Notes: generated by a model not told the origin, from the sequence alone. A stretch of 64,000 nt of DNA from Deltaproteobacteria bacterium (GCA_037439645.1 JBBIVQ010000002.1:2282-66281); one strand, 5' to 3'. Counted from the stretch's first letter, positions 5,621 through 23,185 are shown. Translations and numbers: made by a program.

Positions 5621-7054
5621 ATGAACGTGGCGATCGTGGGAACGGGGTACGTGGGGCTGGTGACCGGGGTGTGCCTCGCAGAGCGGGGGAACGCGGTGCA
5701 CTGTGTCGACACGAACCCGTCGATTCTCGAAAAGCTGAACGCGGGGCAGGTGACCATCTACGAGCCGGGGCTCGACGACATCTACCTGCGCAACCTGAAG
5801 AAAGGGAGGATCTCCTTCTCCGCGGATCTCGAAAAAGCGGTCGTTCCGGCCGAGATCGTCTTCCTGTGCCTGCCCACGCCACCGGGGGAGGACGGCTCCG
5901 CGGACCTCAGGTACATCCTCAAGGTGGCCGAGGACCTCGGGAAGATCTTCGCGAACCGGCCGGACGCCGGGTACAAGGTGGTCGTCGACAAATCGACCGT
6001 GCCGGTGGGGACGAGCGAAAAAGTCCGGTCGGCGATCCGGAAGAACGCGGGGCCGACGTTCGGATTCGACGTCGTGTCGAACCCGGAATTTTTACGCGAG
6101 GGATTCGCGGTCGAAGATTTCCTGCGGCCGGAGCGCGTGGTGATCGGGTCGGGTGCGGAGCGGGCGATCGTGGTGTTGAAAGACCTGTACGAGCCGTTTC
6201 TCCAGCCGGGGAGCAAAGTCATCGTGATGGACGAGAAGAGCGCCGAGGTGACCAAGTACGCGGCGAACGCCTTCCTCGCGTTGAAGATCTCCTACATGAA
6301 CGACCTGTCCAACTTCTGCGACGCGGTGGGGGCCGACATCGACCGGATCCGGGACGGGATCGGCTCCGACTCGCGGATCGGGCACCGGTTCCTCTTCCCC
6401 GGGTTGGGGTACGGCGGGTCGTGCCTCCCCAAGGACGTGAAGGCCCTGCTGAAAAGCGCGTCCGATGCGGGAGCGCCGCTCTCCGTCCTGCAGGCGGTGG
6501 AGGACATCAACCAGGAGCAGCGGAAGCGGTTCTTCCGGAAAATGGCGAGCCACTTCGGAGGCAAGGTCGAGGCGCGGCGGTTCGCCGTCTGGGGGATCGC
6601 GTTCAAGCCGAACACGGACGACACGCGGGAGGCGCCGGTGTTTTACATCATCGACGCGTTGCTGGAGGGGAAGGCGACGGTGGCGGTGTACGACCCCGAG
6701 GCGATGGAAGGGGCGCGGGCCCGGTACGGGGACCGGGTCGAATACGCGGAGTCGTCGTACGGGGCGTTGCAGGGGGCCGACGCGCTGGTGATCGCGACGG
6801 AGTGGAACGAGTTCCGCAAGCCCGACTTCGGGCTGATGAAGACCCTGATGCGGCAGCCGGTTCTCTTCGACGGACGCAACATCTTCGACCCGCGGAAGAT
6901 GCGGGAGCGCGGCTTCCTCTACCATTCGATCGGCCGCAAGGCCCACGAAATCCACGAGGCCCTCGGGGCCGGCGCCCCAATAACCCCCCCAGACCCCCCC
7001 CAGACCCAGAACCGGGACGTTGCTAAAACTACCCCGGAAGTGGGACATAGATGA
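5621..7054 (+). CDS. ugd: UDP-glucose 6-dehydrogenase with a C-terminal extension running through a repeat arm
   Basis: GTGYVG, VDKSTVPVGT, SNPEFLREG, KYAANAFLA, GYGGSCLPKD (catalytic Cys), AFKPNTDDTREAP. Confidence 0.95.
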   Translation: MNVAIVGTGYVGLVTGVCLAERGNAVHCVDTNPSILEKLNAGQVTIYEPGLDDIYLRNLKKGRISFSADLEKAVVPAEIVFLCLPTPPGEDGSADLRYILKVAEDLGKIFANRPDAGYKVVVDKSTVPVGTSEKVRSAIRKNAGPTFGFDVVSNPEFLREGFAVEDFLRPERVVIGSGAERAIVVLKDLYEPFLQPGSKVIVMDEKSAEVTKYAANAFLALKISYMNDLSNFCDAVGADIDRIRDGIGSDSRIGHRFLFPGLGYGGSCLPKDVKALLKSASDAGAPLSVLQAVEDINQEQRKRFFRKMASHFGGKVEARRFAVWGIAFKPNTDDTREAPVFYIIDALLEGKATVAVYDPEAMEGARARYGDRVEYAESSYGALQGADALVIATEWNEFRKPDFGLMKTLMRQPVLFDGRNIFDPRKMRERGFLYHSIGRKAHEIHEALGAGAPITPPDPPQTQNRDVAKTTPEVGHR

Positions 7055-7169
7055 CTGCATAACAACAACTTATCTGCGTATCTACGGAAGCGACATATTG
7101 TGATGGGAAATGGTTTGGATTGATGTCTGTCCCGGTTCTACCGTAGTTTTAGCAACGTCCCGGTTCTGG
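7006..7169. repeat. REPIN-like element A: inverted pair of ~45-bp arms around an 80-bp unique spacer
   Basis: CCAGAACCGGGACGTTGCTAAAACTACCCCGGAAGTGGGACA (+, from 7006) and CCAGAACCGGGACGTTGCTAAAACTACGGTAGAACCGGGACA (-, from 7169). Confidence 0.9.
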
Positions 7170-7210
7170 GGTTCCGGTTCCGGGTGGGTTTGAGAGGTGA
7201 GGAGGGGGAG

Positions 7211-7666
7211 ATGATCGACGGCGTGGTGGTGAAACAGTTGCGGGTGATCCCGGACGAACGCGGGCGGCTGATGGAGATCCTGCGGGAGGACGACGAGATC
7301 TACATGCGGTTCGGCCAGGTGTACCTGACCACCGGGTACCCGGGCGTGGTCAAGGCGTGGCACTACCACAAGGTCCAGTTCGACCACTTCTGCGTGGTGA
7401 AGGGGATGATGAAGGTGGTGCTCTTCGATTCGCGGGACGGCTCCCCGACGAAGGGCGAGGTGAACGAATTCTTCCTTGGAGAGCACCGGCCGATCGTCCT
7501 TCGGATCCCGCCGCTCGTCTACCACGGGTTCAAGACGGTAAGCAGCGAGGAGGCGTTTCTCATCAACGTCTCGACGCAGACGTACAAGTACGACGCGCCG
7601 GACGAGTTCCGCCTTCCCCCGCACGACAACGACATCCCCTACGATTGGGCGAGGAAGGACGGGTGA
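7211..7666 (+). CDS. rmlC: dTDP-4-dehydrorhamnose 3,5-epimerase family cupin
   Basis: DERGRLME, VVKAWHYH, V..G...VV.FD.R..SPT, IPPLVYHGF; upstream of rmlD-rmlB. Confidence 0.9.
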   Translation: MIDGVVVKQLRVIPDERGRLMEILREDDEIYMRFGQVYLTTGYPGVVKAWHYHKVQFDHFCVVKGMMKVVLFDSRDGSPTKGEVNEFFLGEHRPIVLRIPPLVYHGFKTVSSEEAFLINVSTQTYKYDAPDEFRLPPHDNDIPYDWARKDG

Positions 7667-7697
7667 CCGCCTCGGGCGGAGATTCGGTGCCTGCAAC

Positions 7698-8558
7698 ATG
7701 AGGATATCGATCACCGGCGGTCTCGGGCTGCTCGGGACGGAGATCGCGCGGGTATTCGAAGGATCCGCCGGGATCCGGGCGACCGACAGGGAGCAGTGGG
7801 ACGTGACCGACCCCGCGGCGTGCCGGCGCGAGGTCGGCGAATTCCGGCCGGACGTGGTGATCCATTGCGCGGCCTGGACGGCCGTGGACCGGGCGGAGAG
7901 CGAACCGGAGGGGGCCCGGCTCCTCAACGTCGAGGGAACGCGCAACGTCGCGCGCGCCTGCCGGGAGCGCGGGGTCTTGATGGTCACGTTCGGGACCGAC
8001 TACATTTTCGACGGGACGTCGCGCCGGCCGTATCGGGAAGAGGATCCGGCGAACCCGCTCTCCGTGTATGGGAAAACGAAGTGGGCAGCCGAGCAGGCGC
8101 TTCGGGAGGAGGGGGGCGACCACCTGCTGGTGCGCACGCAGTGGATGTTCGGCCCCGCGGGGAGGAATTTCATCCGAACGATTCTCGAGAAGGCGCAACG
8201 GGGAGAAACGCTTCGGGTCGCGTCGGACCAGGTCGGGTGCCCGACGTTTTCGAGGGATCTTGCGGTTGCCGTCCGGAACCTGATCGGTGCGGGCGCCCGG
8301 GGGACGGTCCATTTTTCCGGCGAAGGGAAGACGAGCTGGTTCGGCCTCGCGCGGCATGTGCTGGAGCGTTGCGGGATCCCGACGACGTCGCTGTTGGCCG
8401 CGAAGACCCGGGAGCTGCCGTACCCGGCGCCGAGACCGGCGTACGGCGTGTTGAGCAAGGAGAGGTATCGGAAGATCACCGGGAGCTCTCCGAGACCGTG
8501 GGAGGAGGCGGTCGGGGAGTACCTCGCCATGATCGATCCGGAAAGGGAGGCGCGCTGA
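7698..8558 (+). CDS. rmlD: dTDP-4-dehydrorhamnose reductase
   Basis: TGGLGLLG, HCAAWTAVDRAESE, TDYIFDG, PLSVYGKTK (YxxxK), DQVGCPT, APRPAY. Confidence 0.95.
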   Translation: MRISITGGLGLLGTEIARVFEGSAGIRATDREQWDVTDPAACRREVGEFRPDVVIHCAAWTAVDRAESEPEGARLLNVEGTRNVARACRERGVLMVTFGTDYIFDGTSRRPYREEDPANPLSVYGKTKWAAEQALREEGGDHLLVRTQWMFGPAGRNFIRTILEKAQRGETLRVASDQVGCPTFSRDLAVAVRNLIGAGARGTVHFSGEGKTSWFGLARHVLERCGIPTTSLLAAKTRELPYPAPRPAYGVLSKERYRKITGSSPRPWEEAVGEYLAMIDPEREAR

Positions 8559-9577
8559 TGCGGATTCTCGTCGCCGGGGGGGCCGGATTCATCGGCTCGA
8601 ACTTCGTCCGGTACATCCTCGGGGCCCACAACGACTGGTCCGTGGCGAACGTGGACAAGCTGACCTACGCGGGGAACCTGGCGAACCTGGCGGACGTGGC
8701 AGGGGACCCGCGGTACCGTTTCCACCGGGCGGACATCTGCGACGCGGCCGAGGTGACGAGGATTTTCGCGGAGGAGAAGCCCGATGCGGTCGTCAACTTC
8801 GCCGCCGAGACGCACGTGGACCGCAGCATCGACGACCCGGCCCTCTTCCTGCGAACGAACATCCTTGGGACGCAGGTTCTGCTCGACGCGGTGCGAAAGG
8901 CGAAGGTCTCCCGGTACCTTCAGATTTCGACCGACGAGGTGTACGGCTCGCTGGGGGCCGTCGGGAGGTTCTCCGAGGAGTCGCCGCTGTCGCCCAACTC
9001 GCCTTACGCCGCCAGCAAGACGTCGGCGGACCTGCTGGTGCGGGCGTACGGGAAAACGTTCGGCCTGCCGGTGCTCGTCACCCGCTGTTCGAACAACTAC
9101 GGGCCGTACCAGTTCCCCGAGAAGATCATCCCGTTCTTCGTGACGCTGCTGCACGCGGGGAAGCAGGTCCCCGTGTACGGCGACGGGATGAACGTGCGCG
9201 ACTGGATCCACGTGGAGGACCATTCGCGGGCCGTGGAGGCGGTGCTGCAGCGCGGTCGTCCCGGCGAGATCTACAACGTGGGCGGGGGAAACGAGCGGAC
9301 GAACATCGAGATCACGAAGATGCTGATCGCCGCGATGGGGAAGGACGAACGGGCGATGAAGTTCGTCCCCGACCGGCCGGGCCACGACCGCCGGTACGCG
9401 ATCGACGATTCGAAGATCCGGGCGGAATTGGGTGTCGCCCCTCGGGTCCCGTTCGATGAGGGTCTGCGCGCCACGGTGCGCTGGTACATCGACAACGAAC
9501 CGTGGTGGCGGGCGGTCCAGTCCGGAGAATACCAGTCGTTCTACGACCGTTGGTATGTGAAGAAGTCCCGCACCTGA
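8558..9577 (+). CDS. rmlB: dTDP-glucose 4,6-dehydratase
   Basis: GGAGFIGSNF, DKLTYAGN, FAAETHVDRSI, STDEVYG, SPYAASK, RCSNNYGPYQFPEK, DRPGHDRRYA; TGATG coupling to rmlD. Confidence 0.97.
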   Translation: MRILVAGGAGFIGSNFVRYILGAHNDWSVANVDKLTYAGNLANLADVAGDPRYRFHRADICDAAEVTRIFAEEKPDAVVNFAAETHVDRSIDDPALFLRTNILGTQVLLDAVRKAKVSRYLQISTDEVYGSLGAVGRFSEESPLSPNSPYAASKTSADLLVRAYGKTFGLPVLVTRCSNNYGPYQFPEKIIPFFVTLLHAGKQVPVYGDGMNVRDWIHVEDHSRAVEAVLQRGRPGEIYNVGGGNERTNIEITKMLIAAMGKDERAMKFVPDRPGHDRRYAIDDSKIRAELGVAPRVPFDEGLRATVRWYIDNEPWWRAVQSGEYQSFYDRWYVKKSRT

Positions 9578-9587
9578 TCACGAAACC

Positions 9588-10618
9588 CCAGAACCGGGAC
9601 GTTGCAAAAACTCCCCCGGAAATGGGACAGACATGCACGTTATTTTCCCGCGACCTTTCTTTCTGACCTCAAGAGATACGCCGCTGCCTTCTCCGTGATT
9701 CCGACCCATTGGGCCAATTGGACGACGGATACCGTGAGCTCCGACTTGCATGCCTTCAAGACCTCTCTCCGGACCTGGACTGCGTGGTAGTTTCTCTTGC
9801 CGCCGACGACATCTTCCACCGGCACACCATGCGATGCGGCAAGTCGATGGAGAGTCCTGGTAAAAATATCGCGGGGCCCCGCCATAACACCCCCGGAATC
9901 CTCCCCCACCTCGGAAGCGTTTTGCATTGAAACAATAACGCCCTCCCCGGGATGATCGGGGGATGGAAATTGAATGTGATCGCGGTAGGCGGATACCCAG
10001 CGGGATCCACCATCGATATCATGAAACTCGGTCTGTAGCAGTTCGATATCCTGCCATTCCGGGGGGCCGCCATGAAGGATTTTCCGGTGCCCGGTCCACG
10101 GATACTCCTCCAGTTCGGCGATCGATCGTACGATTTTCGCACGGAGGGGGTTGAGATGGATGTACTTAACGACATCGAATAAATATCGGGGTTTGTCTAC
10201 GATCGGCGACTTGTAACGGTTTTGGAAGAGATGTCCTACCCGGTTGTGTCGTTCATTGAAAAATTTGGAATATCCCGTCAACAGACACTGCATGAAAGAA
10301 ACGAGCGAACCTCGATCGCTTTGTAATAACAAGTGAAAATGGTTTGGCATGAGAGACCAGGCAGCGCATTTCATCCCCCACTTTGGCAGGTTCGTGCCGA
10401 CCCGGTGCAGGAAGGAATCGCGGTCGATATCGTCGAAAAAGATGTTTCGCTTTTCGATCCCTCGCGCGTAAACGTGATGGATCGCGCCCACAAAGTCTAT
10501 CCTTGGTCCTCTTGGCACGCCGGGGAAAATTCAAATATCGGGCCAAGGGCAATTGCAGCAGCCGGTGGGCCAAGACTGTCCCGGTTCCGGGGGAGTTTTA
10601 GGAACGTCCCGGTTCTGG
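9588..10618. mobile_element. Element B: RAYT gene enclosed by an inverted pair of the same ~45-bp arms
   Basis: Left arm CCAGAACCGGGACGTTGCAAAAACTCCCCCGGAAATGGGACA (+, 9588) and right arm CCAGAACCGGGACGTTCCTAAAACTCCCCCGGAACCGGGACA (-, 10618); interior visibly AT-richer than host genes. Confidence 0.85.
9640..10518 (-). CDS. REP-associated tyrosine transposase (RAYT, HUH/Y1 family) with an extra C-terminal helical/HTH-like domain
   Basis: HHVYARG..K..IF, LMPNHFHLL (HUH), GHLFQNRYKS, YIHLNP (catalytic Tyr), YPWTG; 292 aa, about twice IS200 TnpA; no tnpB adjacent; GTG start. Confidence 0.9.
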   Translation of the reverse strand: MPRGPRIDFVGAIHHVYARGIEKRNIFFDDIDRDSFLHRVGTNLPKWGMKCAAWSLMPNHFHLLLQSDRGSLVSFMQCLLTGYSKFFNERHNRVGHLFQNRYKSPIVDKPRYLFDVVKYIHLNPLRAKIVRSIAELEEYPWTGHRKILHGGPPEWQDIELLQTEFHDIDGGSRWVSAYRDHIQFPSPDHPGEGVIVSMQNASEVGEDSGGVMAGPRDIFTRTLHRLAASHGVPVEDVVGGKRNYHAVQVRREVLKACKSELTVSVVQLAQWVGITEKAAAYLLRSERKVAGK

Positions 10619-11584
10619 GGTCGGTGGTGGGGCTGGTTGAGGGGTGGATCGAAACCAGTCGAACGTTTGCGCGAGGCCCTCGGAGAAGGAGACCTTCGGA
10701 TCGTAGCCGATGAGGTCCCTGGCGAGGCAGATGTCGGCCAGCGAGTCGCGCACGTCTCCCAAGCGGGCCGGCTCGAACTTCGGAGGTACGCGCTTCTCGG
10801 CAAGCCGGTAAACGACGTCGAGGATGTCGAGGAGCGATACCCGCTCGCCGCAGGCGATGTTGACGACCTTTCCGCATGCGGTCTTCGGGGCGAAGCAGGC
10901 CGCGAGGTTGGCCTGGATCACATTGTCGATGAAGGTGAAGTCGCGCGTCTGGCCGCCGTCGCCGTAGACGGTGGGCGGCACCCCTTGCAGCACCGTTGTG
11001 ATGAACCGGGGGATGACCGCTGCATACGTCGACTTAGGGTCCTGCCGCGGCCCGAACACGTTGAAGTAGCGAAGACAGACGGTCTCCAGTCCATAAATCT
11101 CGTGAAAGACCCGCATGTAATGCTCGCCAGCGAGCTTCTGCAATGCGTACGGCGATTTCGGGTTCGGGGGCATCGACTCCCGCTTGGGGAGCTGGGGGGT
11201 GTCGCCGTAGGCGGAAGAGGAAGCGGCGAAGACGACGCGCCGGACGCCGGCGTCACGGGCGGCGACGAGCAGATTCACCGTTCCCGACACGTTGATCTCG
11301 TTGGAGAGAACCGGGTCGGCTACGGAGCGCGGAACCGAGGGGAGCGCCCCCTCATGGAAGATATACTCGACGCCCGCCGTCGCCCTGCGGACGGTTTCGG
11401 GGTTCCTCAGGTCGCCCTCGATCAGCTCGAACCCGCCGCCGTACCGCTGTGCCAGTCCGTCGAGGTTTTCCCGTTTCCCCGTGAGGAAGTTGTCGAGGAC
11501 ACGAACAGTCCCGCCCGCGGCCAACAGCGCCCGCGTCAGGTTCGACCCGATGAACCCCGCCCCCCCGGTCACCAGATATTTCAT
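10598..11584 (-). CDS. NAD-dependent UDP-GlcNAc/GlcNAcA 4-epimerase (WbpP/TviC-like extended SDR)
   Basis: TGGAGFIGS, HEGALPSVPRSVADP, SSSAYG, SPYALQK, LRYFNVFGPRQDP, GDGGQTRDFT; stop lies inside the right arm of element B. Confidence 0.92.
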   Translation of the reverse strand: MKYLVTGGAGFIGSNLTRALLAAGGTVRVLDNFLTGKRENLDGLAQRYGGGFELIEGDLRNPETVRRATAGVEYIFHEGALPSVPRSVADPVLSNEINVSGTVNLLVAARDAGVRRVVFAASSSAYGDTPQLPKRESMPPNPKSPYALQKLAGEHYMRVFHEIYGLETVCLRYFNVFGPRQDPKSTYAAVIPRFITTVLQGVPPTVYGDGGQTRDFTFIDNVIQANLAACFAPKTACGKVVNIACGERVSLLDILDVVYRLAEKRVPPKFEPARLGDVRDSLADICLARDLIGYDPKVSFSEGLAQTFDWFRSTPQPAPPPTPEPGRS

Positions 11585-11627
11585 CGTTCCCGCCATCCAC
11601 CCAGGATTATTCACCCGGAACCGTACC

Positions 11628-11768
11628 CCAGAACCGGGACGTTGCTAAAACTCCCCCAAAAACGGGACAGAGATGAACAATCTGTTCATCGTATTGTTGC
11701 TCGTTCAACAAGGGAACCGGTATCTCTGACCCACTTCCGGGGGAGTTTTAGCAACGTCCCGGTTCTGG
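11628..11768. repeat. REPIN-like element C: inverted arms around a 57-bp unique spacer
   Basis: CCAGAACCGGGACGTTGCTAAAACTCCCCCAAAAACGGGACA (+, 11628) and CCAGAACCGGGACGTTGCTAAAACTCCCCCGGAAGTGGGTCA (-, 11768). Confidence 0.9.
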
Positions 11769-11771
11769 GGG

Positions 11772-13088
11772 TCAGAGTTTTACGATCTTCTTCCCGTTTT
11801 GCCCCTTCAGCGCGTTGCGTGTGTCGACGATCATTCTCGACTCGCGGATGACCATTTTATAGTCGAAGGCGGCGTGGTTCGTCACGATCACCACGCAGTC
11901 GGCTTTCCGCAGCGTCGCGGCGGAAAACGGCGTCGCGGCAAGAGACATCCCCGCCTCCCGCACCTCGGAAACGTACGGGTCGCAGTACGACAGGCGCGCC
12001 CCCTTGTCCGCCAGGAGCTTCAGGATGTCGAGCGCGGGCGACTCCCGCACATCGCTGATGTCCTTCTTGTACGCTACTCCCAGCACCAGCACCTTCGCCC
12101 CGTTGACCGCCTTCCGATCCCGGTTGAGCGCCTCGGCCACCTTTTCGACCGTGTAGTGCGGCATCTGACCGTTCACCACGCCCGCCAGCTCGATGAAGCG
12201 CGACTCGAACCCGAACTGTTTCGCCTTCCACGACAGGTAGAACGGGTCCAGCGGGATGCAGTGCCCGCCGATCCCCGGCCCGGGGTAGAAAGGCATGAAT
12301 CCGAACGGCTTCGTCCCGGCCGCGTCGATCACCTCCCACACGTCGATCCCCATCCGGTTCGCCATGAGCGCGATCTCGTTCACCAGCGCGATGTTCACCG
12401 ACCGGAACGTGTTCTCGAGCAGCTTCACCATCTCTGCCACCGCCGCCGTCGACACCGGATGGACGTGCTCCAGCACGCCGCCGTAGAGCGCCACCGCCAC
12501 CTTCGTGCACGCGGGCGTCACGCCGCCGACCACTTTCGGGATATTCTTCGTTGTGAATTTTGCGTTCCCCGGATCGACCCGCTCCGGCGAGAAGGCGAGG
12601 AAGATGTCCTTCCCCACCTTGAACCCCTTCTCTTCCACCATCGGTCCGAGAACTTCCCGCGTCGTCCCGGGGTACGTCGTGCTCTCGAGGACGATCAACA
12701 TGTCCTTGTGGAGATACTCCAGCAGGTGCTCCATCGCTCCGACGATGTAGGAGAGGTCCGGATCTTTCGTCTTGCGCAGCGGCGTGGGGACGCAGATGTT
12801 GACCGTGTCCGCCATTCCGGCCGCCGAGTAGTCGGTGGTCGGGGTGAAGAGCCCCGCGTCGATCGCACTTCTCACCGCCCCGGACGGGACGTCCCCGATG
12901 TACGACTTCCCGGACCGCAACGCGCGGACCTTGGAACCGTCGATGTCGATGCCGACGACCGGGATCCCCGCGTCGGCGTACTCCATCGCCAGCGGAAGCC
13001 CGACATACCCCATCCCCACGATCGCCGCGGTGAACTCTTTCCGCTTGATGCGGGACAGCAGATCCTTCTCGCTCCGGGTGCCTGCCAT
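11772..13088 (-). CDS. UDP-N-acetyl-D-glucosamine 6-dehydrogenase (WbpA/WbpO/TviB-like)
   Basis: GMGYVGLP, ICVPTP, ESTTYPGTT, FSPERVDPGN, KLLENTFRSVNIAL, GIGGHCIPLDP, GVAYKKDISDVRESP; AGGAGG upstream of ATG 13088. Confidence 0.92.
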   Translation of the reverse strand: MAGTRSEKDLLSRIKRKEFTAAIVGMGYVGLPLAMEYADAGIPVVGIDIDGSKVRALRSGKSYIGDVPSGAVRSAIDAGLFTPTTDYSAAGMADTVNICVPTPLRKTKDPDLSYIVGAMEHLLEYLHKDMLIVLESTTYPGTTREVLGPMVEEKGFKVGKDIFLAFSPERVDPGNAKFTTKNIPKVVGGVTPACTKVAVALYGGVLEHVHPVSTAAVAEMVKLLENTFRSVNIALVNEIALMANRMGIDVWEVIDAAGTKPFGFMPFYPGPGIGGHCIPLDPFYLSWKAKQFGFESRFIELAGVVNGQMPHYTVEKVAEALNRDRKAVNGAKVLVLGVAYKKDISDVRESPALDILKLLADKGARLSYCDPYVSEVREAGMSLAATPFSAATLRKADCVVIVTNHAAFDYKMVIRESRMIVDTRNALKGQNGKKIVKL

Positions 13089-13171
13089 CTTCCTCACGTC
13101 CTCCTTCGCGCGGAACTCCAAACCGGCCGGGCGTCGCCTCGTATTCCTATCGGAACGGACCCGGAGAATGA

Positions 13172-14149
13172 TCAGGCCGATTTCAGCTTTTTCAACTCTG
13201 CGACCATTTCCGGTACCGCCTTGAAGAGATCGGCCACCAGGCCGTAATCCGCCACCTGGAAGATGGGGGCCTCCTCGTCCTTGTTGATCGCCACGATCAC
13301 CTTGCTGTCCTTCATCCCCGCAAGGTGCTGGATCGCCCCGCTGATCCCCAGCGCAATGTAGAGCTCCGGCGCGACGATTTTTCCTGTCTGCCCCACCTGC
13401 CAGTCGTTCGGAGCCCACCCCGCGTCCACCGCCGCACGGGACGCGCCGATCGCCGCGTTCAGGAGGTCCGCAAGTTCCTCGACCAGTTTGAAGTTCTCCC
13501 GTGCCTTGATCCCGCGCCCCGCGGAGACGATCGCCCGCGCCTCGGTCAATTCCGGCCGCTCGGATTTCGTCTCCTGCCGGGAAACGAACACCGTGCCCAC
13601 CGCATCGGCCGTAACCGCCACCTTTTCCACGGGGGCCTTCGCACCGGTCGCGAGCGCCGCGTCGAACGCCGTCTGGCGCACCGTGAAGAGGAGCGGGCCG
13701 CCGACGAGCTCGACCGTCCCGATCGCGTTCCCCGCGTACATCGGGCGCTTCACCCGCAGCGCGTCCCCGTCCTTCTCCAACCCGACGATGTCGCTCGCCA
13801 GAGGGGCGTCGAGCAGCCCGGACAGCCGCGGCATGAAATCCTTCCCGAACGTGGAGGCTGGCGCCAACACGGCGCCGTACCCTTGGGCCTTCACCATCTG
13901 CGCCACCGCGCCTGCGCAAGTCACCGCGAGGTATTTTGCGAACGCCGCCCCCTCGCCCAGCAGGACCTTGCGCACGCCCGTGCCTGCGGCGACATCGGCG
14001 ACCGCCGCGGCGCCCTCCGCTCCGAGAACCAGCGCGTCGACCGCGCCACCGAACAGCCCCGCCAGCGCCTTGGCCGCCGATACGACCGACAGCGTGTTCT
14101 TCTTGAAGACCCCTTCCTGATGCTCGACGACTACCAGTATGTCCGCCAT
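13172..14149 (-). CDS. etfA: Electron transfer flavoprotein alpha subunit
   Basis: [70 protein letters not shown]. Confidence 0.97.
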
Positions 14150-14269
14150 GAAATCCTCCGTATCGTTCGTCATGCTTCCGATCGGGACAGATGCGTCAAC
14201 CTGCCCCGCTGTGCCGCCTGCGTATCTCCCTGTTCAGCGCGAGTTCGCAGGAACGTCCCTGTTCAACGA

Positions 14270-15022
14270 TTACAAAACCTTTGCTTCGTTTTTCAGTTTC
14301 GACACCAGCTCCGCGACGTCGGCCACTCGTCCTCCTCCCGCGCGCTGCTTCGGGGCGGCGAACGAGAGCACCTTCACCTTCGGCGCCGTGTCCACGCCCA
14401 GGGACGACACCGGCACGACCTTCAGTTCCTTCTTCTTCGCCTTCATGATGCCGGGGAGCGACGCGTAGCGCGGCTCGTTCAACCGGAGGTCGGTCGTCAC
14501 CACCGCCGGGAGCGCCACCTCGATCGTCTCCAGTCCCCCGTCGACCTCGCGCGTCACGTTCGCCTTCCCGTTGTCCGCCGCGAATTCGATCTTCGATGCG
14601 AAGGTCGCCTGCGGCCAACCGAGCACCGCGGCGAGGATCTGGCCCACCTGGTTGTTGTCGTCGTCCACCGACTGTTTCCCCATCAGCACCAGTTCGGCCT
14701 TCTCGTCGGCGACCACCTTCGCCAACACCTTCGCTACCGCCAGCGAGTCCAGGTCCGTCCCCGCCTCGACCAGCACCGCGCGGTCCGCCCCCATCGCCAG
14801 CGCGGTGCGCACCTGCTGGTCGCCCACTTTCGGACCGACGGTCACGACGACCACTTCGCCGCCCTGTTTCTCCTTGATCCGGAGCGCTTCCTCCACTGCG
14901 ATCTCGCAGAACGGGTTCACCACCATCTTGATGTTCTCGAGGACGATACCGCTCCCGTCTCCCTTGATCTTGACCTTCTCGTCGGGGTTGGGGACCGGCT
15001 TGATGGCGACCAGGATCTTCAC
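14270..15022 (-). CDS. etfB: Electron transfer flavoprotein beta subunit
   Basis: [62 protein letters not shown]; GTG start with GGAGG. Confidence 0.97.
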
Positions 15023-15060
15023 GTTGCACCTCCCATGAAAGTCAACGGTTCAAACGCCAC

Positions 15061-15089
15061 AACATAGCGGAAACGAATGTCAAAGGCAA
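15061..15089 (-). promoter_or_regulatory. Candidate sigma70 promoter for etfBA
   Basis: TTGCCT-N17-TATGTT on the minus strand about 38 nt upstream of the etfB start. Confidence 0.4.
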
Positions 15090-15103
15090 GAATGAACGAT
15101 GGT

Positions 15104-15514
15104 TCAGTTCGAGGCCGTGCGAGGAGCCGGCGAATGTTCGCTTGTGAGAAGAAACGGGAACAGATTCACCGCCACGTTCGAGCAGAGGGCCCCGGCCGCC
15201 CCCCCGGCAAGGTCCGCCATCCAATCGAGGAGTTCCATCGACCGGCCCGGGATCCACTGCTGGTGAAATTCATCGACCGCTCCAAGGAGAGCGATGAAGG
15301 CGACCGCGCAGATCACGGACGCCAGCCGCTCCTTCCCCAACTCCAGCCGCCACAGGGCGCAGAGGAAGCCGGCCACTCCGTAGAAGCCGAAGTGGGCGAC
15401 CTTGTCCACCCCCGGGAACGACGGTCCGAACTCCGGGTTCGGGATCGACGTCAGAGTAAAGGTGAGCGCCACCCACCCCACCAGCAACACAAGGTACAAC
15501 CGTTCCCGCGTCAC
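15104..15514 (-). CDS. VanZ-family membrane protein
   Basis: DKVAHFGFYG, DEFHQQWIPGRS...DWMADLAG; GTG 15514 with GGAGGG. Confidence 0.85.
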   Translation of the reverse strand: MTRERLYLVLLVGWVALTFTLTSIPNPEFGPSFPGVDKVAHFGFYGVAGFLCALWRLELGKERLASVICAVAFIALLGAVDEFHQQWIPGRSMELLDWMADLAGGAAGALCSNVAVNLFPFLLTSEHSPAPRTASN

Positions 15515-15582
15515 TTCCCCCTCCGCCGCAAGACGCCCCGGAACTCCGGGGCGGAACTCCAGACAGCCCCCCGGGACCAGAA

Positions 15583-15726
15583 CCAGAACCGGGACGTTGC
15601 TAAAACTAACCAAGAACCGGGACAGAGATGACAGTTTTTAACCAACGTCGGCGGAAAACCCCCCATGCTTCCGAGTCCTATCTCTGTCCCAGTTCCACCG
15701 TAGTTTTAGCAACGTCCCGGTTCTGG
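15583..15726. repeat. REPIN-like element D: inverted arms around a 60-bp unique spacer
   Basis: CCAGAACCGGGACGTTGCTAAAACTAACCAAGAACCGGGACA (+, 15583) and CCAGAACCGGGACGTTGCTAAAACTACGGTGGAACTGGGACA (-, 15726), flanked by CCAGAA-type tandem units. Confidence 0.9.
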
Positions 15727-15756
15727 TTCGGTTCTGGTTTCGGTTCTGGTCCGGGG

Positions 15757-16557
15757 TCAAGTGGTGATTTTCCGCGCGACGACCAGGAAGGCGGAGTGGG
15801 AGAACATCCACTGTACGGGGCGCACCGAGTTCCCCTTCACGTGCCAGGGGCGCAGGATCACCTCGAACGTCTCCGGCTCCGCGAAGCCGCCCACTTCGAG
15901 GTACCGGTCGCACAGCTGTTTCACCTGGATCGTGGAGGGGAGGTACGACAGGACGATCCCCCCCGGTGCGAGCGCTTCCCGCGCGTGGGGAACCGCCCGC
16001 CACGGCTCGGGCAGATCGAGGACGATCCGGTCCACCTCCCGCTCGTCGATCCCGAGATGGATGTCGCGCACCTTCACCTCGTGGTTGTCGCATTCGCCGA
16101 GATACCGCCTGACCGTGTCCGCGCCGCTCACCGCGAAATCTTCCCGGATCTCGTACGAGACGACCTTCCCCGTCGGACCGACGGCCTCCAGCAGCTTGAT
16201 GGTGAGAGCCCCCCAGCCGATCCCCGCCTCGACGACGGTTGCCCCGGGAAAGATGTCCGCCCACATCAGGATCGTCCCGGTGTCCTTCGGGTAGATGATC
16301 TGCGCGTGGCGCTTCTGGTTCATGATGAACTGCATGTAGGTGGGGCGAAAGACGCGGTATTCGCTCCCCATCGCGGTCCACGCGCGGCCGCCGTCCTCCT
16401 TGCCGATCAGGTCGTCGTGCGGCAGGTTCCCCTTGTGGGTTCCGAACGCCTTCCCCGGCGTGAGCGTGACGAGATGTTCCTCTCCCTTGGGGGAGATGAG
16501 CAGGATGTCCTCCCCCGCCCGGAACGGCCCGCGGTGAACGCGCTTCCCCCCGGTCAT
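15757..16557 (-). CDS. trmI: tRNA (adenine58-N1)-methyltransferase
   Basis: THKG.LPHDDLIG, RP....F.....R.AQIIYPKD, VEAGIGWGALT SAM motif, LDLPEPW; ATGA-coupled to ttuA. Confidence 0.9.
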   Translation of the reverse strand: MTGGKRVHRGPFRAGEDILLISPKGEEHLVTLTPGKAFGTHKGNLPHDDLIGKEDGGRAWTAMGSEYRVFRPTYMQFIMNQKRHAQIIYPKDTGTILMWADIFPGATVVEAGIGWGALTIKLLEAVGPTGKVVSYEIREDFAVSGADTVRRYLGECDNHEVKVRDIHLGIDEREVDRIVLDLPEPWRAVPHAREALAPGGIVLSYLPSTIQVKQLCDRYLEVGGFAEPETFEVILRPWHVKGNSVRPVQWMFSHSAFLVVARKITT

Positions 16558-17542: not shown

Positions 17543-17740
17543 TTACCCCCCGGAGACGACGGAGAGGACGTCGATCGTCGCCCCGTCCTCCACACGTTGG
17601 TCCTTCGTGAGGAGGTTCTTCCCCTGGGTGACGATCACGGTCGTGGGGCGCACTCCCGCCTCGGCGAGGATGTCCATTACCCGCCTCGGGCCCCGGACAT
17701 CGATCTCCTTCTTCTTCTGCGGAATGCGGACGCGGATCAT
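17543..17740 (-). CDS. ttuB: Ubiquitin-like sulfur carrier (ThiS/MoaD/TtuB-like)
   Basis: 65 aa, ends VVSGG, immediately upstream of ttuA. Confidence 0.8.
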   Translation of the reverse strand: MIRVRIPQKKKEIDVRGPRRVMDILAEAGVRPTTVIVTQGKNLLTKDQRVEDGATIDVLSVVSGG

Positions 17741-17880
17741 CGGATGCATTATACACAAAACGACCACGCTTCTCCCGGCGGCGGGATGGCGGTCGACGGG
17801 CCATCGATCCGGCGCGGAAGATGTCCCGATTCCCCGTGAATTCGGGCGTGTCCTCCGGTAAGATGGTGAAAACGGGGGCG

Positions 17881-19575
17881 ATGCCCATGAACCGAAGAGG
17901 TTTCAACGAACGGCTTCTCTCCACCCTCTCCGTCCCGGCGTCGGAGGCCGGGACGCTTCTCGATCTCGCGCGCGCGGAGGGGGGGGCTTTCCCGCGTCTC
18001 CTCGTGACCCGGGGGCACCTGAACGGCGAGACGTTGAGGGACGCCTACGAGTCCATCTGCGGAATCCCCCCGTTCCGGGCGGACGCCGATCCCGCGCGCC
18101 CCCTGCCGGGAGAACTCCTCCCGCTGCCGTTCCTCCGCGCGAAGCTGGTATACCCGGTGTCGGTTTCCGACGGGGCCGTTACCGTCGCGATGTCCGATCC
18201 GCTCGACGCGGAAGCGCGGGAGGCGATCGCCAAGGCCACCGGGAAGCGCGTCGAGGTCGTCGCCGCCACCGAGGAGCAGATCCGGGAGGCGATCGAGAAG
18301 ACGTTCGGCGGCGCGGCCGGTTCGATGGAGCGTTTCGTGGAGCAGGTCGGGGACGAAGGCGTGGAGGCGGCCCCCGGTGACGAGCGGGTGGAACAGTTGA
18401 TCGGCGTCGCCTCCGAAGCGCCCATCATCCGGCTGGTCAATTTCGTCCTGGCCCGGGCGATCGAGCGCGGTGCGAGCGATATCCATCTCGAGCCGTACGA
18501 GAAGGCGTTGCGCGTCCGCTACCGGATCGACGGGGTCCTCGAAGACGTGGAATCGCCGCCGCGGCGCCTCCAGACCGCGATCATCTCCCGCATCAAGATC
18601 ATGTCCCGGCTGAACATCGCGGAGAGCCGCCTTCCCCAGGACGGCAGGGTGAGGCTCCGGATCGGCGGCAAGGAGATCGATTTCCGCGTCTCGACGATCC
18701 CCACCCTGTACGGCGAGAGCGTCGTGATCCGGATTCTCGACCAGGCGTCGGTCCCGCTCGACATGGGGACGCTCGGCTTCTTCCCGGACACGCTTTCGAC
18801 ATTCCGCCCGATGGTGTCGGCGCCGTACGGGATGATCCTGGTGACCGGCCCCACCGGAAGCGGGAAGACGACCACGCTGTACGCGGCCCTCCAGGAGATC
18901 CGGTCGCCCGGGCGCAAGATCATCACCATCGAGGATCCGGTGGAGTACCAGATCCCCGGCGTCATCCAGATCCAGGTGAAGCCGCAGATCGGCTTGACGT
19001 TCGCCTCCGGGCTGCGGTCGATCGTCCGCCAGGACCCCGACGTCATCCTGGTCGGCGAGATCCGCGACCGCGAAACGGCGGAGATCGCCATCCACTCGGC
19101 GCTCACCGGGCACATGGTCCTCTCCACCCTCCACACCAACGACGCCCCCGGGGCGGTCACGCGCCTCCTCGAAATGGGGGTCGAGGAGTACCTCCTTCCG
19201 TCGGTCCTGATCGGCGTGCTCGCGCAGCGGCTCGTGCGGACGGTCTGCACCGGGTGCTCCGCCCCGCGGGAGATCTCCGGCGCGCTCCGGGAGGATCTCC
19301 TCCGCGAGGCGGGATTCGTCCCGGAGGGGGACCTGCGGATCGGCCGCGGGTGCGAGGCGTGCGGCGGGACCGGATACCGCGGGCGGTCGGGGATCTTCGA
19401 GCTGCTTCCCGTCACCGGGGAGATCAAGGAACTGATCCTGTCGCGGGCCGATGCCGGAACGCTCCGGACGCGGGCGGCCGCCGCGGGGATGCGGCCGCTG
19501 CGCGACGACGGGTGGGAGAAGGTGCGGCGGGGGACCACGACCGTGGAGGAAGTCCTCCGGGTCACACGGGCGTAG
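17881..19575 (+). CDS. gspE: Type II secretion ATPase
   Basis: ASDIHLEP, DIAE-like NIAESRLPQDGR, TGPTGSGKTTTLY, TIEDPVEY, RQDPDVILVGEIRD, LSTLHTND; exact start uncertain. Confidence 0.93.
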   Translation: MPMNRRGFNERLLSTLSVPASEAGTLLDLARAEGGAFPRLLVTRGHLNGETLRDAYESICGIPPFRADADPARPLPGELLPLPFLRAKLVYPVSVSDGAVTVAMSDPLDAEAREAIAKATGKRVEVVAATEEQIREAIEKTFGGAAGSMERFVEQVGDEGVEAAPGDERVEQLIGVASEAPIIRLVNFVLARAIERGASDIHLEPYEKALRVRYRIDGVLEDVESPPRRLQTAIISRIKIMSRLNIAESRLPQDGRVRLRIGGKEIDFRVSTIPTLYGESVVIRILDQASVPLDMGTLGFFPDTLSTFRPMVSAPYGMILVTGPTGSGKTTTLYAALQEIRSPGRKIITIEDPVEYQIPGVIQIQVKPQIGLTFASGLRSIVRQDPDVILVGEIRDRETAEIAIHSALTGHMVLSTLHTNDAPGAVTRLLEMGVEEYLLPSVLIGVLAQRLVRTVCTGCSAPREISGALREDLLREAGFVPEGDLRIGRGCEACGGTGYRGRSGIFELLPVTGEIKELILSRADAGTLRTRAAAAGMRPLRDDGWEKVRRGTTTVEEVLRVTRA

Positions 19576-19578
19576 CCG

Positions 19579-20802
19579 ATGGCGGTCTTCGGGTACCGGG
19601 TCACCGACGCGTCCGGCCGGGTCACCGAAGGGGTGATCGAGGCGGCGGAGGAGGGGGCGGCGAGAGACCGTCTGCGCGAGCAGGAGCTGACCCCCATCCG
19701 CGTGTGGGCCGCGTCGGCCGGCGTCGGTCCGATCGCTCCGGAAGGGTCGCACGGGACGGGGGTCCGCGCCGCGCGGAGGGACCTTCTGCCGTTCCTCCAG
19801 GGGTTCCGGACGCTCCTGGCGGCCGGCGTCCCGATCGACCGGGCGCTCGAGATGATGGCCGACCTGTTCCGCGGCGGGCCGATGGGGGCGGTGGCGGTGT
19901 CCCTGCTGCGCGAGATCCGGGCGGGGAGCTCCCTCTCCGACGCCATGCGAAAATCCCCCGGCTCCCCCTTCAGCCGGTTTCTCGTCCAGATGGTACAGGC
20001 GGGGCAGGCGACCGGCCGGCTCGAGGAGGCACTGGACCAGGCGTACCGGTTCCTCGACCGGTCGAAGGCGTTTCGTTCGAACCTGCTCGGGTCTCTCATC
20101 TACCCCGTCATCCTCCTCGTCGCCTCCATCGTGTCGGTGGTCCTCCTCGTCGTGTTCGTCGTTCCGCGATTCGCGGGAGTGTTCGCCTCCTCGGGGGTGC
20201 TCCTCCCGCTTCCGACCCGGATCCTCCTGTCGGTCAGTTCCTTCCTCTCCGGGAACTTCCTCTATCTTCTCGCCGCACTGGCCGCCGCCGTCGCCCTGTT
20301 CCGCGCCGCCCTCTCCCGGCCCGGGGCGAGACGGGAATGGGACCGTGGAAAGATGGCGTGGCCCGTCGTGGGGCGGGCCGTCACCGCGATGGAGACGTCC
20401 CGCGTGATGCGCTCCCTGTCGTCCCTTCTCTCCGGCGGGGTCCCGATCCTGTCCGCCTTCGTCATCGCGCGGGAGGTCAGCGGGAACGTGGCGGTGCGGG
20501 AAGGGATGGAGGCGGCGCGGCTGAAGGTGCAGGGAGGCTCCAAGGTGGCGCGCGCCCTCGCGGAGACGACGCCGTTCCCCGCGATGGCGCTCCAGATGAT
20601 CGCGGTGGGCGAGGAGACGGGGCGGCTCGAAGAGATGCTTGCGTCCGTGGCCGACGCGTTCGAGGACCAGGCGAACCGGAGCATGAAGAATTTCCTGACG
20701 ATCCTCGAGCCGGCCGTGATCCTCGCGATGGGCCTGCTGGTCGGGTTCATCGTCTTCTCGATGTTCCTTGCCGTGTTCCGTCTCAACGAGGTGCCGTTCT
20801 GA
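19579..20802 (+). CDS. gspF: Type II secretion inner-membrane platform protein
   Basis: Two T2SSF repeats (AGQATGRL, AVGEETGRL), LIYPVIL, ILEP. Confidence 0.93.
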   Translation: MAVFGYRVTDASGRVTEGVIEAAEEGAARDRLREQELTPIRVWAASAGVGPIAPEGSHGTGVRAARRDLLPFLQGFRTLLAAGVPIDRALEMMADLFRGGPMGAVAVSLLREIRAGSSLSDAMRKSPGSPFSRFLVQMVQAGQATGRLEEALDQAYRFLDRSKAFRSNLLGSLIYPVILLVASIVSVVLLVVFVVPRFAGVFASSGVLLPLPTRILLSVSSFLSGNFLYLLAALAAAVALFRAALSRPGARREWDRGKMAWPVVGRAVTAMETSRVMRSLSSLLSGGVPILSAFVIAREVSGNVAVREGMEAARLKVQGGSKVARALAETTPFPAMALQMIAVGEETGRLEEMLASVADAFEDQANRSMKNFLTILEPAVILAMGLLVGFIVFSMFLAVFRLNEVPF

Positions 20803-21242
20803 TGCGGCGGCGCGGGGCGTTCACCCTGGTCGAGCTGATCGTCGTGCTGGCGCTCGTCGGGCTGCTGGCGGCCCTGATCGCGCCCTCCTTCACCCGCACG
20901 ATCGTTTCCGCGAGACTTCGGTCCGCCGCATCGGACGTCCGGGGGGTCCTTGCCCGCGCGCGCGCGCTGGCGGTCGCCGGGGCGCGGGACCGCGTCGTCA
21001 CGTTCGATCCCGGCAACGGCACGTTCGGCATCGACAACGATACGGTGCACCGCCTTCCGGAGACGATCCGGCTCGGCGGCGCGGGCGATCCGGAGGAAGG
21101 GCGAAACGGCGGGGAGTTCCGGGTCCGGTTCTTCGTCGACGGCAGCGCGCAGGAAGCGGAGATCTTCGTGACGGCGGAGGACGGCGGGAGGCTCCGGGTG
21201 ACGGTCGAGCCGTTGACGGGGATCGCGGAGGCCGGGACGTGA
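20802..21242 (+). CDS. gspH: Minor pseudopilin, GspH/FimT-like
   Basis: RRRGA-FTLVELIVV N-methylation motif (Ala at -1), ARARALA; TGATG coupled to gspF. Confidence 0.8.
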   Translation: MRRRGAFTLVELIVVLALVGLLAALIAPSFTRTIVSARLRSAASDVRGVLARARALAVAGARDRVVTFDPGNGTFGIDNDTVHRLPETIRLGGAGDPEEGRNGGEFRVRFFVDGSAQEAEIFVTAEDGGRLRVTVEPLTGIAEAGT

Positions 21243-21640
21243 TCTCCGGGAAAGCCCGCGAGAAAGGGTTCACGCTCCTCGAAGTCATCGTGGCGATGGC
21301 GCTCTTCGCCGCGGGGATCGTCGCGATCAGCCGGCTCTTCACGGGGGCGCTTCGGCTTTCCGGCGGCGCGCGCGACGCCTCCTCCGCGGTGGTCTACGCC
21401 CGGCAGCGGATGGAGGAGGCGCTCCTTTTGCCCGATCCCTCGGAGGGGATCGAGCGGGGGACCTTCGGGGACTCTTTCCGCTGGAAAGTGGCCACGACGT
21501 TCGTCCCGCAGGAAGAGCCGGAGCCGTACGACGAGATCCGGGTCCTCGTGACGGTCACCTGGGACGATGGCGGGCACGAGCGTTCGATGGATCTGTCGGC
21601 GACGCGCTGGCGGTGGAAGGACCGGGATGAGGGCGCCTGA
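21239..21640 (+). CDS. gspI: Minor pseudopilin
   Basis: EKG-FTLLEVIVAM; GTGA overlap; position in operon. Confidence 0.8.
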   Translation: MISGKAREKGFTLLEVIVAMALFAAGIVAISRLFTGALRLSGGARDASSAVVYARQRMEEALLLPDPSEGIERGTFGDSFRWKVATTFVPQEEPEPYDEIRVLVTVTWDDGGHERSMDLSATRWRWKDRDEGA

Positions 21641-22277
21641 CGCGCGGGGAGGGCGAGGCTTCACGCTCCTCGAGCTGGTCGTCGCGATGACGATCCTCTC
21701 GCTGATCGCGGGGAGCGTGGCGGTGGGGATCCGACTCGCCGCCGGGTCGATCGAGCGCGGGGAGGCGGTGACGCGGGAAGCCTCCCGGCTGCGGGCGGCG
21801 ATCGGGGTCGTCGAACGGTCCCTCCGGTCGGCGGACCCCCTGCCTGTCGCGGTGGAGGACAACACGACGGCGTTCTTCATCGGCGAGGAGAAGCGTGTCC
21901 GGTTCCTGTGCGGCGCGGTCCCTCCCGCGTTGCGCGGCGGCGGCCCGCGGCTCGTCTCGTTTTTCGAGTTGCGGGATCCGGCGGCCGGCGGGCTCGCCGT
22001 GGCGACCGCCTCGCCTTTCCTTCCGGGCGGGGCGGGGAGCTGGGAAGGGACGGGAGGCGCGCGGGTCCTTCTCCCACGGGGGCGGGATCTGCTCTTTTCC
22101 TACTCGGGCGGTCCGACGAAGGAGGGGGCATGGGAATGGCTTCCGTCGTGGGACGTGAAGGAGGCGGGGAGGCTGCCCGCCGCGGTCCGGATCGAGTTCG
22201 TCGTCCCCTCGGAAGGGGGGGGGCGAAAGACCGCCTTCGTGGTCCCGATTCCCGCGGGAGGAGGGATCGGCGGATGA
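21627..22277 (+). CDS. gspJ: Minor pseudopilin
   Basis: GRG-FTLLELVVAM, C-terminal LPAAVRI. Confidence 0.8.
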   Translation: MRAPDARGGRGFTLLELVVAMTILSLIAGSVAVGIRLAAGSIERGEAVTREASRLRAAIGVVERSLRSADPLPVAVEDNTTAFFIGEEKRVRFLCGAVPPALRGGGPRLVSFFELRDPAAGGLAVATASPFLPGGAGSWEGTGGARVLLPRGRDLLFSYSGGPTKEGAWEWLPSWDVKEAGRLPAAVRIEFVVPSEGGGRKTAFVVPIPAGGGIGG

Positions 22278-23185
22278 GGCGGAACCGCGGGATCGCGCAG
22301 ATTCTCGTCTTGTGGGCACTGGCGCTGCTGGGAACGCTCGCCCTCGGGTTCTCCTGGTCGATGCGCACCGAGGCGATGGCCGCCCGGAACGGGATCGACG
22401 AGACGCGCGCCTACTTCCAGGCGCGGACCGGCGTGGACCGGGTCTTGAAACTCCTCGCCACCCTGCCGCCGGACAATGTCCTGCGGATGGCGATCGCCGA
22501 GTCCGACGGGGACGCGTCCTACGAGGTTCGCGTGGAGAGCGAGAGCGGGAAGGTGGACATCAACCTCGTGTCCGAAGGGGTCCTCCTCGAGATCCTCAAG
22601 AAAGGGGGGCTTCCGGCCGATGAGGCGGAAAGCGTCCGCGACGCGATTCTCGACTGGAAAGACGCGGACGATACCCCGAGAGCGCGGGGGGCGGAAGAAC
22701 CGGAGTACGCGCTGTCGCCGGAGCCGGCCCGGCCGCGGAACGGGAAGATCCTCGCGATCGGGGAACTGATGTACGTGAAAGGCGTCACCCCGGAGTTCTT
22801 CCGGGGGTTCCTGGCCCGGGTGTTCACGGCAAACGGGAACTCTCCCCATGTGAATTTCCTCCGGGCACCGGAGGCGGTCCTGCGTTCCCTCCCCGGTGTC
22901 TCCCCCGAAGCGGCCGCGCGGATCGTGGCGCGCCGCGCCGACGACCCGCCGATGACCGCCGCGGAACTCGCCGCGATGGTCGGGGAGGGGATTCTGACGG
23001 CAGAGGGCCTTGCGCTGGTCTCCGGGGCGAGCGCATCGAACGTGTACTCGATCACCGCGATCGGCAAGGCGGGGGGAAACGTGACGCAAGCGGTGCGATG
23101 CCTGGCGGAACTATCCGGGATCGGGGGGAAAGGGGTTAAAATACGGGGTTGGCAGGAGAACGTTTCGCCGGAGGAGGGCGGTTGA
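22274..23185 (+). CDS. gspK: Minor pseudopilin
   Basis: NRG-IAQILVLW (no Glu5), ESGKVDIN, AILDWKD, RPRNG, ELMYVKG, A..AVL..LPG. Confidence 0.85.
   Translation: MRRNRGIAQILVLWALALLGTLALGFSWSMRTEAMAARNGIDETRAYFQARTGVDRVLKLLATLPPDNVLRMAIAESDGDASYEVRVESESGKVDINLVSEGVLLEILKKGGLPADEAESVRDAILDWKDADDTPRARGAEEPEYALSPEPARPRNGKILAIGELMYVKGVTPEFFRGFLARVFTANGNSPHVNFLRAPEAVLRSLPGVSPEAAARIVARRADDPPMTAAELAAMVGEGILTAEGLALVSGASASNVYSITAIGKAGGNVTQAVRCLAELSGIGGKGVKIRGWQENVSPEEGG

Follow-up and report, generated by a model that had tools for sequence, protein, structure and literature searches.

A probable TIRtron with gene-less arm doublets and a transposase predicted to carry a DnaA-like domain

Di Nocera et al. 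(2013; PMC3733652) named the TIRtrons, in which RAYT-like genes, the TIRYTs, lie between long inverted repeats with no relation to REPs. The repeats share a common GGGGWSAS motif and form moderately abundant families, found single, as dimers or in groups (PMC3733652). Quentin et al. (2018; PMC6006769) identified the TIRYTs with TnpA_REP subclass 2.1, whose members are long, carry a C-terminal helix-turn-helix (HTH) or DnaA_C-like domain and have no REPs nearby; the subclass was present in 14.9% of the strains surveyed. REPIN-level repeat abundance has been reported by Bertels et al. (2017; PMC5581495) for RAYT Groups 2 and 3 only. Here, a stretch of 64,000 nucleotides from a Deltaproteobacteria bacterium (GCA_037439645.1, JBBIVQ010000002.1:2282-66281; the window) was analysed, in which a RAYT-like HUH/Y1 transposase gene is enclosed by two inverted repeats (arms) and further copies of the arms form gene-less inverted pairs (doublets). 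We consider it likely that this locus is a TIRtron, composed of a fixed single-locus TIRYT gene of the subclass 2.1 type, fused to a DnaA-domain-IV-like domain, and of a dependent family of gene-less arm doublets.

Relation to described systems

The preliminary description of the window had taken the arms and the gene for a distinct new system. That view is not retained, as the family falls in the already described TIRtron/TIRYT class (PMC3733652), TnpA_REP subclass 2.1 (PMC6006769), and the window system is a further TIRYT/TIRtron and not a new kind. Published TIRYT sequences from supplementary file 5 of the 2013 paper (PMC3733652) were compared with the window protein by blastp, and identities of 41% to Smlt4509 (E 2e-30), 37% to Daud_2153 (E 3e-28), 35% to Gbem_2474 (E 9e-28), 33% to Pcar_3049 (E 4e-22) and 34% to GSU2396 (E 2e-20) were obtained, all five matches covering residues 1-150 of the window protein. 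The protein is therefore closer to published TIRYTs (33-41%, E 1e-20 to 1e-30), some of them deltaproteobacterial, than to the E. coli RAYT b0228 (21%, E 0.006).

The locus resembles the TIRtrons in having a RAYT-like HUH/Y1 gene within long non-REP inverted repeats, and in having copies of the repeats elsewhere, single, dimeric or grouped, in moderate numbers: the window holds one singlet besides three doublets, and 71 distinct doublets (142 arms) are reached when the window and related contigs are taken together. The repeats also come near to the TIRtron motif, the 7-mer GGGWSAS (7 of 8 positions) being dominant (134 of 142 arms) and the full GGGGWSAS rare (12 of 142, none of them in the window). 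The protein is long, as in the class; where subclass 2.1 has a C-terminal HTH domain (Bac_DnaA_C, HTH_23 or HTH_28), the window protein has a region that is DnaA-like by predicted fold and weak profile matches, with no Pfam match in any of 50 homologues. The differences are that the C-domain was not found in the five published TIRYTs compared and has only its fold to place it in the DnaA_C-like branch 2.1.2, and that neither PMC3733652 nor PMC6006769 contains a two-box arm, asymmetric A/B doublets with a conserved bubble and compensatory changes, a gene order kept down to 55% identity or an arm-bounded inversion.

The REPIN-RAYT systems of Gammaproteobacteria (PMC3116915, PMC5581495) and the E. 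coli REPtron share with the window the catalytic fold (4er8 is the best match), a gene lying between its own repeats and inherited vertically at a single locus, and non-autonomous inverted hairpin doublets with co-changing arms. They differ in the repeat unit, which is a short imperfect palindrome with a GTAG tag in REPs and a ~50-nt arm with no palindrome of its own in the window; a conserved GTAG tag is absent from the arm consensus. The window protein also falls short of the NCBIfam RAYT model NF047646 (55.5 bits, cutoff 80) and has the extra DnaA-like domain, and the copy number is seemingly low, with about 7-9 arms by exact pattern in each of two metagenome-assembled genomes (MAGs) as against the tens to hundreds of repeats that a genome with a classical REPIN-RAYT system holds.

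The IS200/IS605 elements (IS608 and ISDra2 TnpA) have in common with the window the HUH/Y1 fold, the lack of target-site duplication, two non-identical ends (here the A and B arms) and an expected single-strand mechanism. However, those elements carry subterminal hairpins and no terminal inverted repeats, whereas the window element has 50-nt inverted arms; and they move about as entire elements present in several copies, whereas all loci examined have the window-type gene at one and the same conserved place in the chromosome. To DnaA domain IV the likeness lies in the fold of residues 215-285 and in weak profile matches in register. The arm boxes (GAACCGGGAC) are unlike the DnaA box TTWTNCACA, there is no AAA+ module, and DNA binding by the window domain is predicted from its fold.

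Arms, doublets and their hairpins

A 44-nt consensus with up to three mismatches allowed matched the window exactly eight times, at 7006+, 7169-, 9588+, 10618-, 11628+, 11768-, 15583+ and 15726-, with 0-2 mismatches per match; shuffled windows gave none (100 shuffles), and the chance expectation is 0. These are the eight arms of the preliminary description, and they form four inward-facing pairs, all in intergenic gaps adjoining the 3' end of a gene, as had been proposed. Its measurements were revised. The arm length of 44-45 nt was not upheld, the conserved arm being ~50 nt, with 'AC' at its outer and '..GGGACAGAGAT' at its inner end, and the spacers of the three short pairs, given as 57-80 bp, measure 76, 53 and 56 nt between 44-nt arms. 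A ninth, divergent singlet arm, which had been missed, was found at 14225-14264 (-); beyond it, neither relaxed patterns nor an nhmmer search with a profile built from 119 arms yielded further copies in the 64-kb window (Table 1).

Table 1. Arms and transposase gene, in positions counted from the first nucleotide of the window
Feature	Coordinates	Strand	Evidence and remarks
Arm, left half of doublet 1, A-type inner part	7004..7053	+	nhmmer 7005-7053, E 1.6e-14; covers end and stop (7052-7054) of UDP-glucose dehydrogenase gene
Arm, right half of doublet 1	7122..7172	-	Consensus and profile
Arm 3' of transposase gene, terminal inverted repeat	9585..9635	+	Also inversion breakpoint relative to L012 and L142
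TIRYT/RAYT-like transposase gene, 292 aa, GTG start	9640..10518	-	Pfam, alignment, structure models
Arm 5' of transposase gene	10571..10621	-	Covers stop codon (10598-10600) of NAD-dependent epimerase gene
Arm, B-type half of doublet 3	11625..11675	+	Consensus and profile
Arm, A-type half of doublet 3	11722..11770	-	Begins right after stop of second UDP-glucose dehydrogenase gene
Ninth arm, divergent singlet, GAACAGGGACGTTCCTGCGAACT subtype as in L142	14225..14264	-	Between ETF-beta and ETF-alpha; nhmmer E 7e-5
Arm, left half of doublet 4	15583..15630	+	With its partner marks second inversion breakpoint
Arm, right half of doublet 4	15680..15726	-	Consensus and profile

The arm consists of two direct copies of a box of approximately CCCAGAACCGGGAC, ~28 nt apart, and ends in GGGACA. 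Arm positions 1-17 (CCCAGAACCGGGACGTT) are almost invariant across the 71 doublets, the search pattern having fixed them in one arm per locus. They are followed by a ~10-nt linker that varies between doublets, by the second box and by the invariant GGGACA. The second box reads CCCCCAGAAGTGGGACAGA in A-type arms and CC(C/A)ACAAA(T/A)CAGGGACAC in B-type arms, and because of this consistent difference the two ends of a doublet are unlike each other. Just outside the arm the two bases are A (89%) and C (95%), and GAACC box-like fragments occur in 27 of 142 ten-base flanks (19%).

When folded as single strands, the doublets reach -52 to -56 kcal/mol, with z scores of -13 to -15. The hairpin is made up of a 30-bp outer stem, an unpaired bubble and a 6-bp GGGACA stem; the bubble (columns 31-39) is unpaired but conserved in sequence. 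The single arms flanking the gene (9585-9635 and 10571-10621) are 88% complementary to each other. By itself, a single arm forms no significant hairpin (folding z -0.2 and -0.5 against shuffles), and this lack of a fold of its own is the main structural difference from REPs. A small single-arm hairpin, TCCC-N8-GGGA around the second box, was considered and rejected, its energy being no better than that of shuffled sequence.

The two arms of a doublet change together. In an alignment of 67 doublets, 88% of the cells pair and 20 pairs show two-sided changes, which was reached by none of 500 shuffles, and slid control alignments gave 34-50% pairing with at most 9 such pairs. Compensated pairs include 20/87 (CG 62, GC 5), 24/83 (GC 49, AU 16), 27/80 (CG 56, GC 10) and 29/78 (CG 55, UA 6, AU 4, GC 1). 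At loci with at least two doublets, the linkers differ by a mean of 0.50 mismatches between partner arms and of 1.81 between neighbouring doublets; since partners differ less than neighbours do, their match is not merely a genome-wide variant.

In two places the arms provide the last codons and the stop of a host gene, namely of UDP-glucose dehydrogenase and of the epimerase (window 7004-7054 and 10598-10621), and the epimerase stop overlaps the arm in L012, L142 and L144 as well (L numbers denote contigs of relatives used as comparison loci). Short tandem repeats resembling the arm box, CCCCCCCAGAC x2, CCAGAAC x2 and GGTTCTG/GTTCGG ~x5, lie just outside the arms at window 6983-7005, 15575-15590 and 15720-15760; they may represent footprints, products of slippage or a favoured target.

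The transposase and its inheritance with the arms

The assignment of the gene to the RAYT-like HUH/Y1 enzymes was supported, with a Pfam Y1_Tnp match at E 1e-9 and 4er8 as the top fold match. In an alignment of 50 homologues, H60-F61-H62 and Y119-I-H-x-N-P are invariant. An AlphaFold2 model (predicted local distance difference test score, pLDDT, 81) comprises an N-terminal domain of residues 1-185, which holds both the HUH motif (H60-F-H62) and Y119, a disordered linker of residues 187-212 and a helical C-domain of residues 215-285. Searched against PDB, the whole model has its best match in 4er8, the E. coli TnpA_REP on a REP hairpin (E 9e-7, template modelling (TM) score 0.72 on target), followed by IS608 and ISDra2 TnpA.

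The C-domain was also modelled alone (pLDDT 87). Its best matches are the DnaA DNA-binding domains 3pvp, 1j1v, 1l8q and 8btg, with TM scores of 0.67-0.75 and root-mean-square deviations of 1.2-1.5 A, and in a profile search against PDB sequences the top three hits are DnaA, at E ~0.07 and in the same register. Residues 215-285 are thus predicted, by fold and weak profile matches, to form a domain like DnaA domain IV. The ratio of nonsynonymous to synonymous substitution rates (dN/dS) of the gene is 0.23, showing purifying selection, and the HUH/Tyr catalytic core is intact; dS is about twice that of the neighbouring genes. The gene (9640-10518) is a low-GC island, with 52-58% against 64-70% around it, yet its site is unchanged.

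The arms had been likened to terminal inverted repeats of the transposase gene. This holds in every lineage examined, and with it the link between the arms and the protein clade. The arm-gene-arm layout occurs in the window and in L004, L010, L011, L012, L024, L142, L143 and L144, at protein identities of 55-99%. Homologues at 99%, 77%, 67%, 60%, 55% and 55% identity (L010, L011, L012-L021, L142, L143 and L144) each lie directly downstream of the same epimerase gene, and a TrmI gene is also nearby in five of these six, the exception being the short L010 contig. Judged from these loci, the transposase gene appears to be single-copy and vertically inherited at one conserved chromosomal site.

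The arms vary along the same lineages, as in CGCAGAACAGGGACGTTCCTGAGAACT (L142), CCCAAAACCGGGACGTTCACAGAACT (L143) and CCRCARAACCGGGACGTTGATGAGTTCT (L144): linkers are lineage-specific, and GAAC[C/A]GGGACGTT and GGGACA are fixed in all lineages. Within the window, seven of the eight main arms carry a GTTGCT variant (further changed to GTTGCA in 9588+), and 10618- keeps GTTCCT. The variant is otherwise found only in L010, the 99%-identical relative, and is absent from the arms of other lineages, so that its sharing across the window arms requires copying between arms and not independent mutation. The metagenome contig L090 (173-317, 1298-2330) carries a doublet of the standard type upstream of the epimerase gene and, upstream of a transposase with 58% identity to that of the window, an arm of the L142 type, so that a single genome holds both arm subtypes.

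Dispersal, rearrangement and competing explanations

The three short pairs had been called REPIN-like, and they do form hairpins with compensatory changes and recur at other sites in related genomes. No gene neighbouring the transposase is present at 48 of the 60 doublet-bearing loci, several of which lie on contigs of 88-251 kb. A comparison of orthologous loci, which the preliminary description had suggested, revealed empty sites. L011 reads TGACC|GCGGGGGAGG where the window and L012 hold doublet 3, and in the ETF gap L011 and L012 have an arm of the standard type, L143 and L144 have none and the window has the GAACAGGGACGTTCCTGCGAACT subtype; the arm subtype at one site therefore differs between lineages. 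Where lineages share a doublet site, the spacers are unalignable and of unequal length, with neighbouring genes 82-93% identical. The 144-145-bp AAGTC-linker doublets of L002, L029 and L134 were considered as occupying the same site as doublet 3 and dropped, as no neighbouring genes were found there at 60% identity or more.

The segment 9583-15517 of the window is inverted relative to L012 (5003-10992) and L142, with breakpoints in the arm 9588-9634 and in doublet 4. The inverted block contains the genes for VanZ, ETF-beta, ETF-alpha, UDP-glucose dehydrogenase, the epimerase and the transposase. The order of L012 is taken as ancestral because it is common to L142, L143 and L144, and the derived order is common to the window, L010 and L011. 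Together with the two empty sites, the arm-bounded inversion shows the arms to be involved in rearrangements. In L011, the VanZ gene and doublet 4 are both missing, and what remains is a degenerate arm-like stretch (6 mismatches) near the TrmI end (L011 5535-5585, compared with window 15106-15750).

The surroundings had been described as a deltaproteobacterial O-antigen locus, which is roughly right at most: the relatives carry the label Deltaproteobacteria MAGs, and nucleotide-sugar and glycosyltransferase genes are present, but ETF, VanZ and TrmI genes are intermixed. The order begins with glycosyltransferase and asparagine synthase genes, UDP-glucose dehydrogenase, doublet 1 and rfbC-, rfbD- and rfbB-like genes; it continues with an arm, the transposase gene (-), an arm, the NAD-dependent epimerase gene (-) and doublet 3, and then with a second UDP-glucose dehydrogenase, ETF-alpha, the singlet arm, ETF-beta, VanZ, doublet 4, TrmI and type II secretion/type IV pilus genes. 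The latter set (window 17632-28446) includes a GspE-like ATPase, a GspF-like protein and a secretin, and three large open reading frames without a Pfam match lie within it (20786-25271, -).

If the locus is a TIRtron, the doublet would fold when its DNA is single-stranded, for example during replication. The Y1 domain would then recognise the bubble and the GGGACA region, cut the outer borders through a 5'-phosphotyrosine link and rejoin the strand elsewhere, perhaps by peel-and-paste in the manner of IS200/IS605 or by a replicative variant of that process. By docking on the duplex boxes, the DnaA-like domain may raise the local enzyme concentration, which would fit the excess of copies near the gene. 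At four border offsets, none of the 71 doublets had a target-site duplication of at least 4 bp; no more than 1 of 71 had a 3-bp match, and matches of 2 bp were close to chance level. This fits a TIRtron that spreads without target duplication, as expected because HUH/Y1 enzymes act on single-stranded DNA. The gene-bearing element itself probably no longer moves: in most lineages its upstream arm lies over the epimerase stop codon, which suggests that the element is locked in place.

Several points weigh against a mobile TIRtron. Cleavage, binding or transposition is reported for no TIRYT in the sparse literature that names the class, nor for the window protein. The covariation could, in inverted DNA repeats, come from gene conversion instead of selection on a hairpin. 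The copy number looks low, and the cut sites are unreadable from the empty (L011) and filled (window, L012) sites, where extra box-like fragments adjoin the arms. For the C-domain, the Foldseek E-values are 0.09-0.6, and no Pfam HTH or DnaA_C model matched the C-terminal 150 aa significantly in any of the 50 homologues, for which reason the DnaA-like assignment rests on fold and weak profile matches. Finally, 3-4 elements lie within ~9 kb of the gene in every lineage, often in the same gaps, which also fits a fixed, non-mobile role.

Such a role is the main rival. The protein would be domesticated: bound to the duplex boxes through its DnaA-like domain, it would regulate or insulate the nucleotide-sugar, ETF and epimerase genes or serve them as an architectural factor, and the doublets would be selected, operator-like sites. 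This would account for the recurrence of arms in the same gaps near the gene across lineages whose proteins are 55-99% identical, for their absence from the other 55 kb of the window, for a C-domain with the predicted shape of a double-stranded DNA-binding domain, for two or three direct box copies per arm and for the two arms that cover stop codons of neighbouring genes. We nevertheless regard it as improbable, since 48 of the 60 doublet-bearing loci lie in unrelated contexts, empty sites exist, and spacers at shared sites are non-homologous and of unequal length. The catalytic HUH and Tyr residues, needless in a pure DNA binder, are invariant, and the compensatory changes indicate a hairpin and not independent half-sites.

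Slightly less probable still is a role at the RNA level, in which transcribed 3'-end hairpins would stabilise mRNAs or punctuate them, as has been described for REPs, and the transposase would have had a part only in spreading the hairpins in the past. All doublets of the window adjoin gene 3' ends, within or between co-directional genes, and the hairpins are very stable. In 35 cases, as opposed to 17, the gene next to the A arm is directed into the doublet, a weak orientation bias that is not relied on here, as it comes from noisy gene calls based on GC content at third codon positions (GC3) that are wrong for some known genes. A terminator/promoter scan, however, found no T-run terminator or promoter signature at any doublet, and Rfam gave no match at gathering and E-value thresholds, only far sub-threshold similarities to miRNA precursors that stem from the long hairpin; no tRNA is present. 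The conserved unpaired bubble suggests recognition by a protein, and the tracking of arms with the transposase clade would be left unexplained. An RNA-level role of the hairpins is, in any case, compatible with a TIRtron. A miniature inverted-repeat transposable element (MITE) family moved by an unseen DDE transposase, with the Y1 gene merely caught between two copies, would suit short gene-less elements with terminal inverted repeats, but is nearly excluded, as border duplications are lacking, no fewer than nine loci show the arm-gene-arm layout, their arms diverging in step with the protein, and no DDE gene lies between the arms in any locus.

A wider proposition goes beyond the assignment of this locus to the TIRtrons and is held here only tentatively, the balance of probability being somewhat against it. 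REPIN-like self-copying doublets tied to a vertically inherited single-copy enzyme may exist in the TIRYTs/subclass 2.1 too, and so beyond RAYT Groups 2 and 3 of Gammaproteobacteria. The enzyme would be guided in part by a DnaA-type duplex-binding domain on the arm boxes, and the arms would be homogenised by copying between sites and would drive inversions.

The advance is incremental, and no new class is added. TIRYTs account for much of the diversity of RAYT-like enzymes in number, and surveys have credited REPINs to Groups 2 and 3 only (PMC5581495) and found no REP-like repeats beside subclass 2.1 (PMC6006769). The locus and its relatives provide a clean comparative case, with a cognate doublet family supported by hairpin evidence, empty sites, arm copying within a genome and an arm-bounded inversion. 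The defined arm and doublet sequences are direct substrates for the first biochemistry on a TIRYT, including the possible reading of duplex boxes by its DnaA-like domain.

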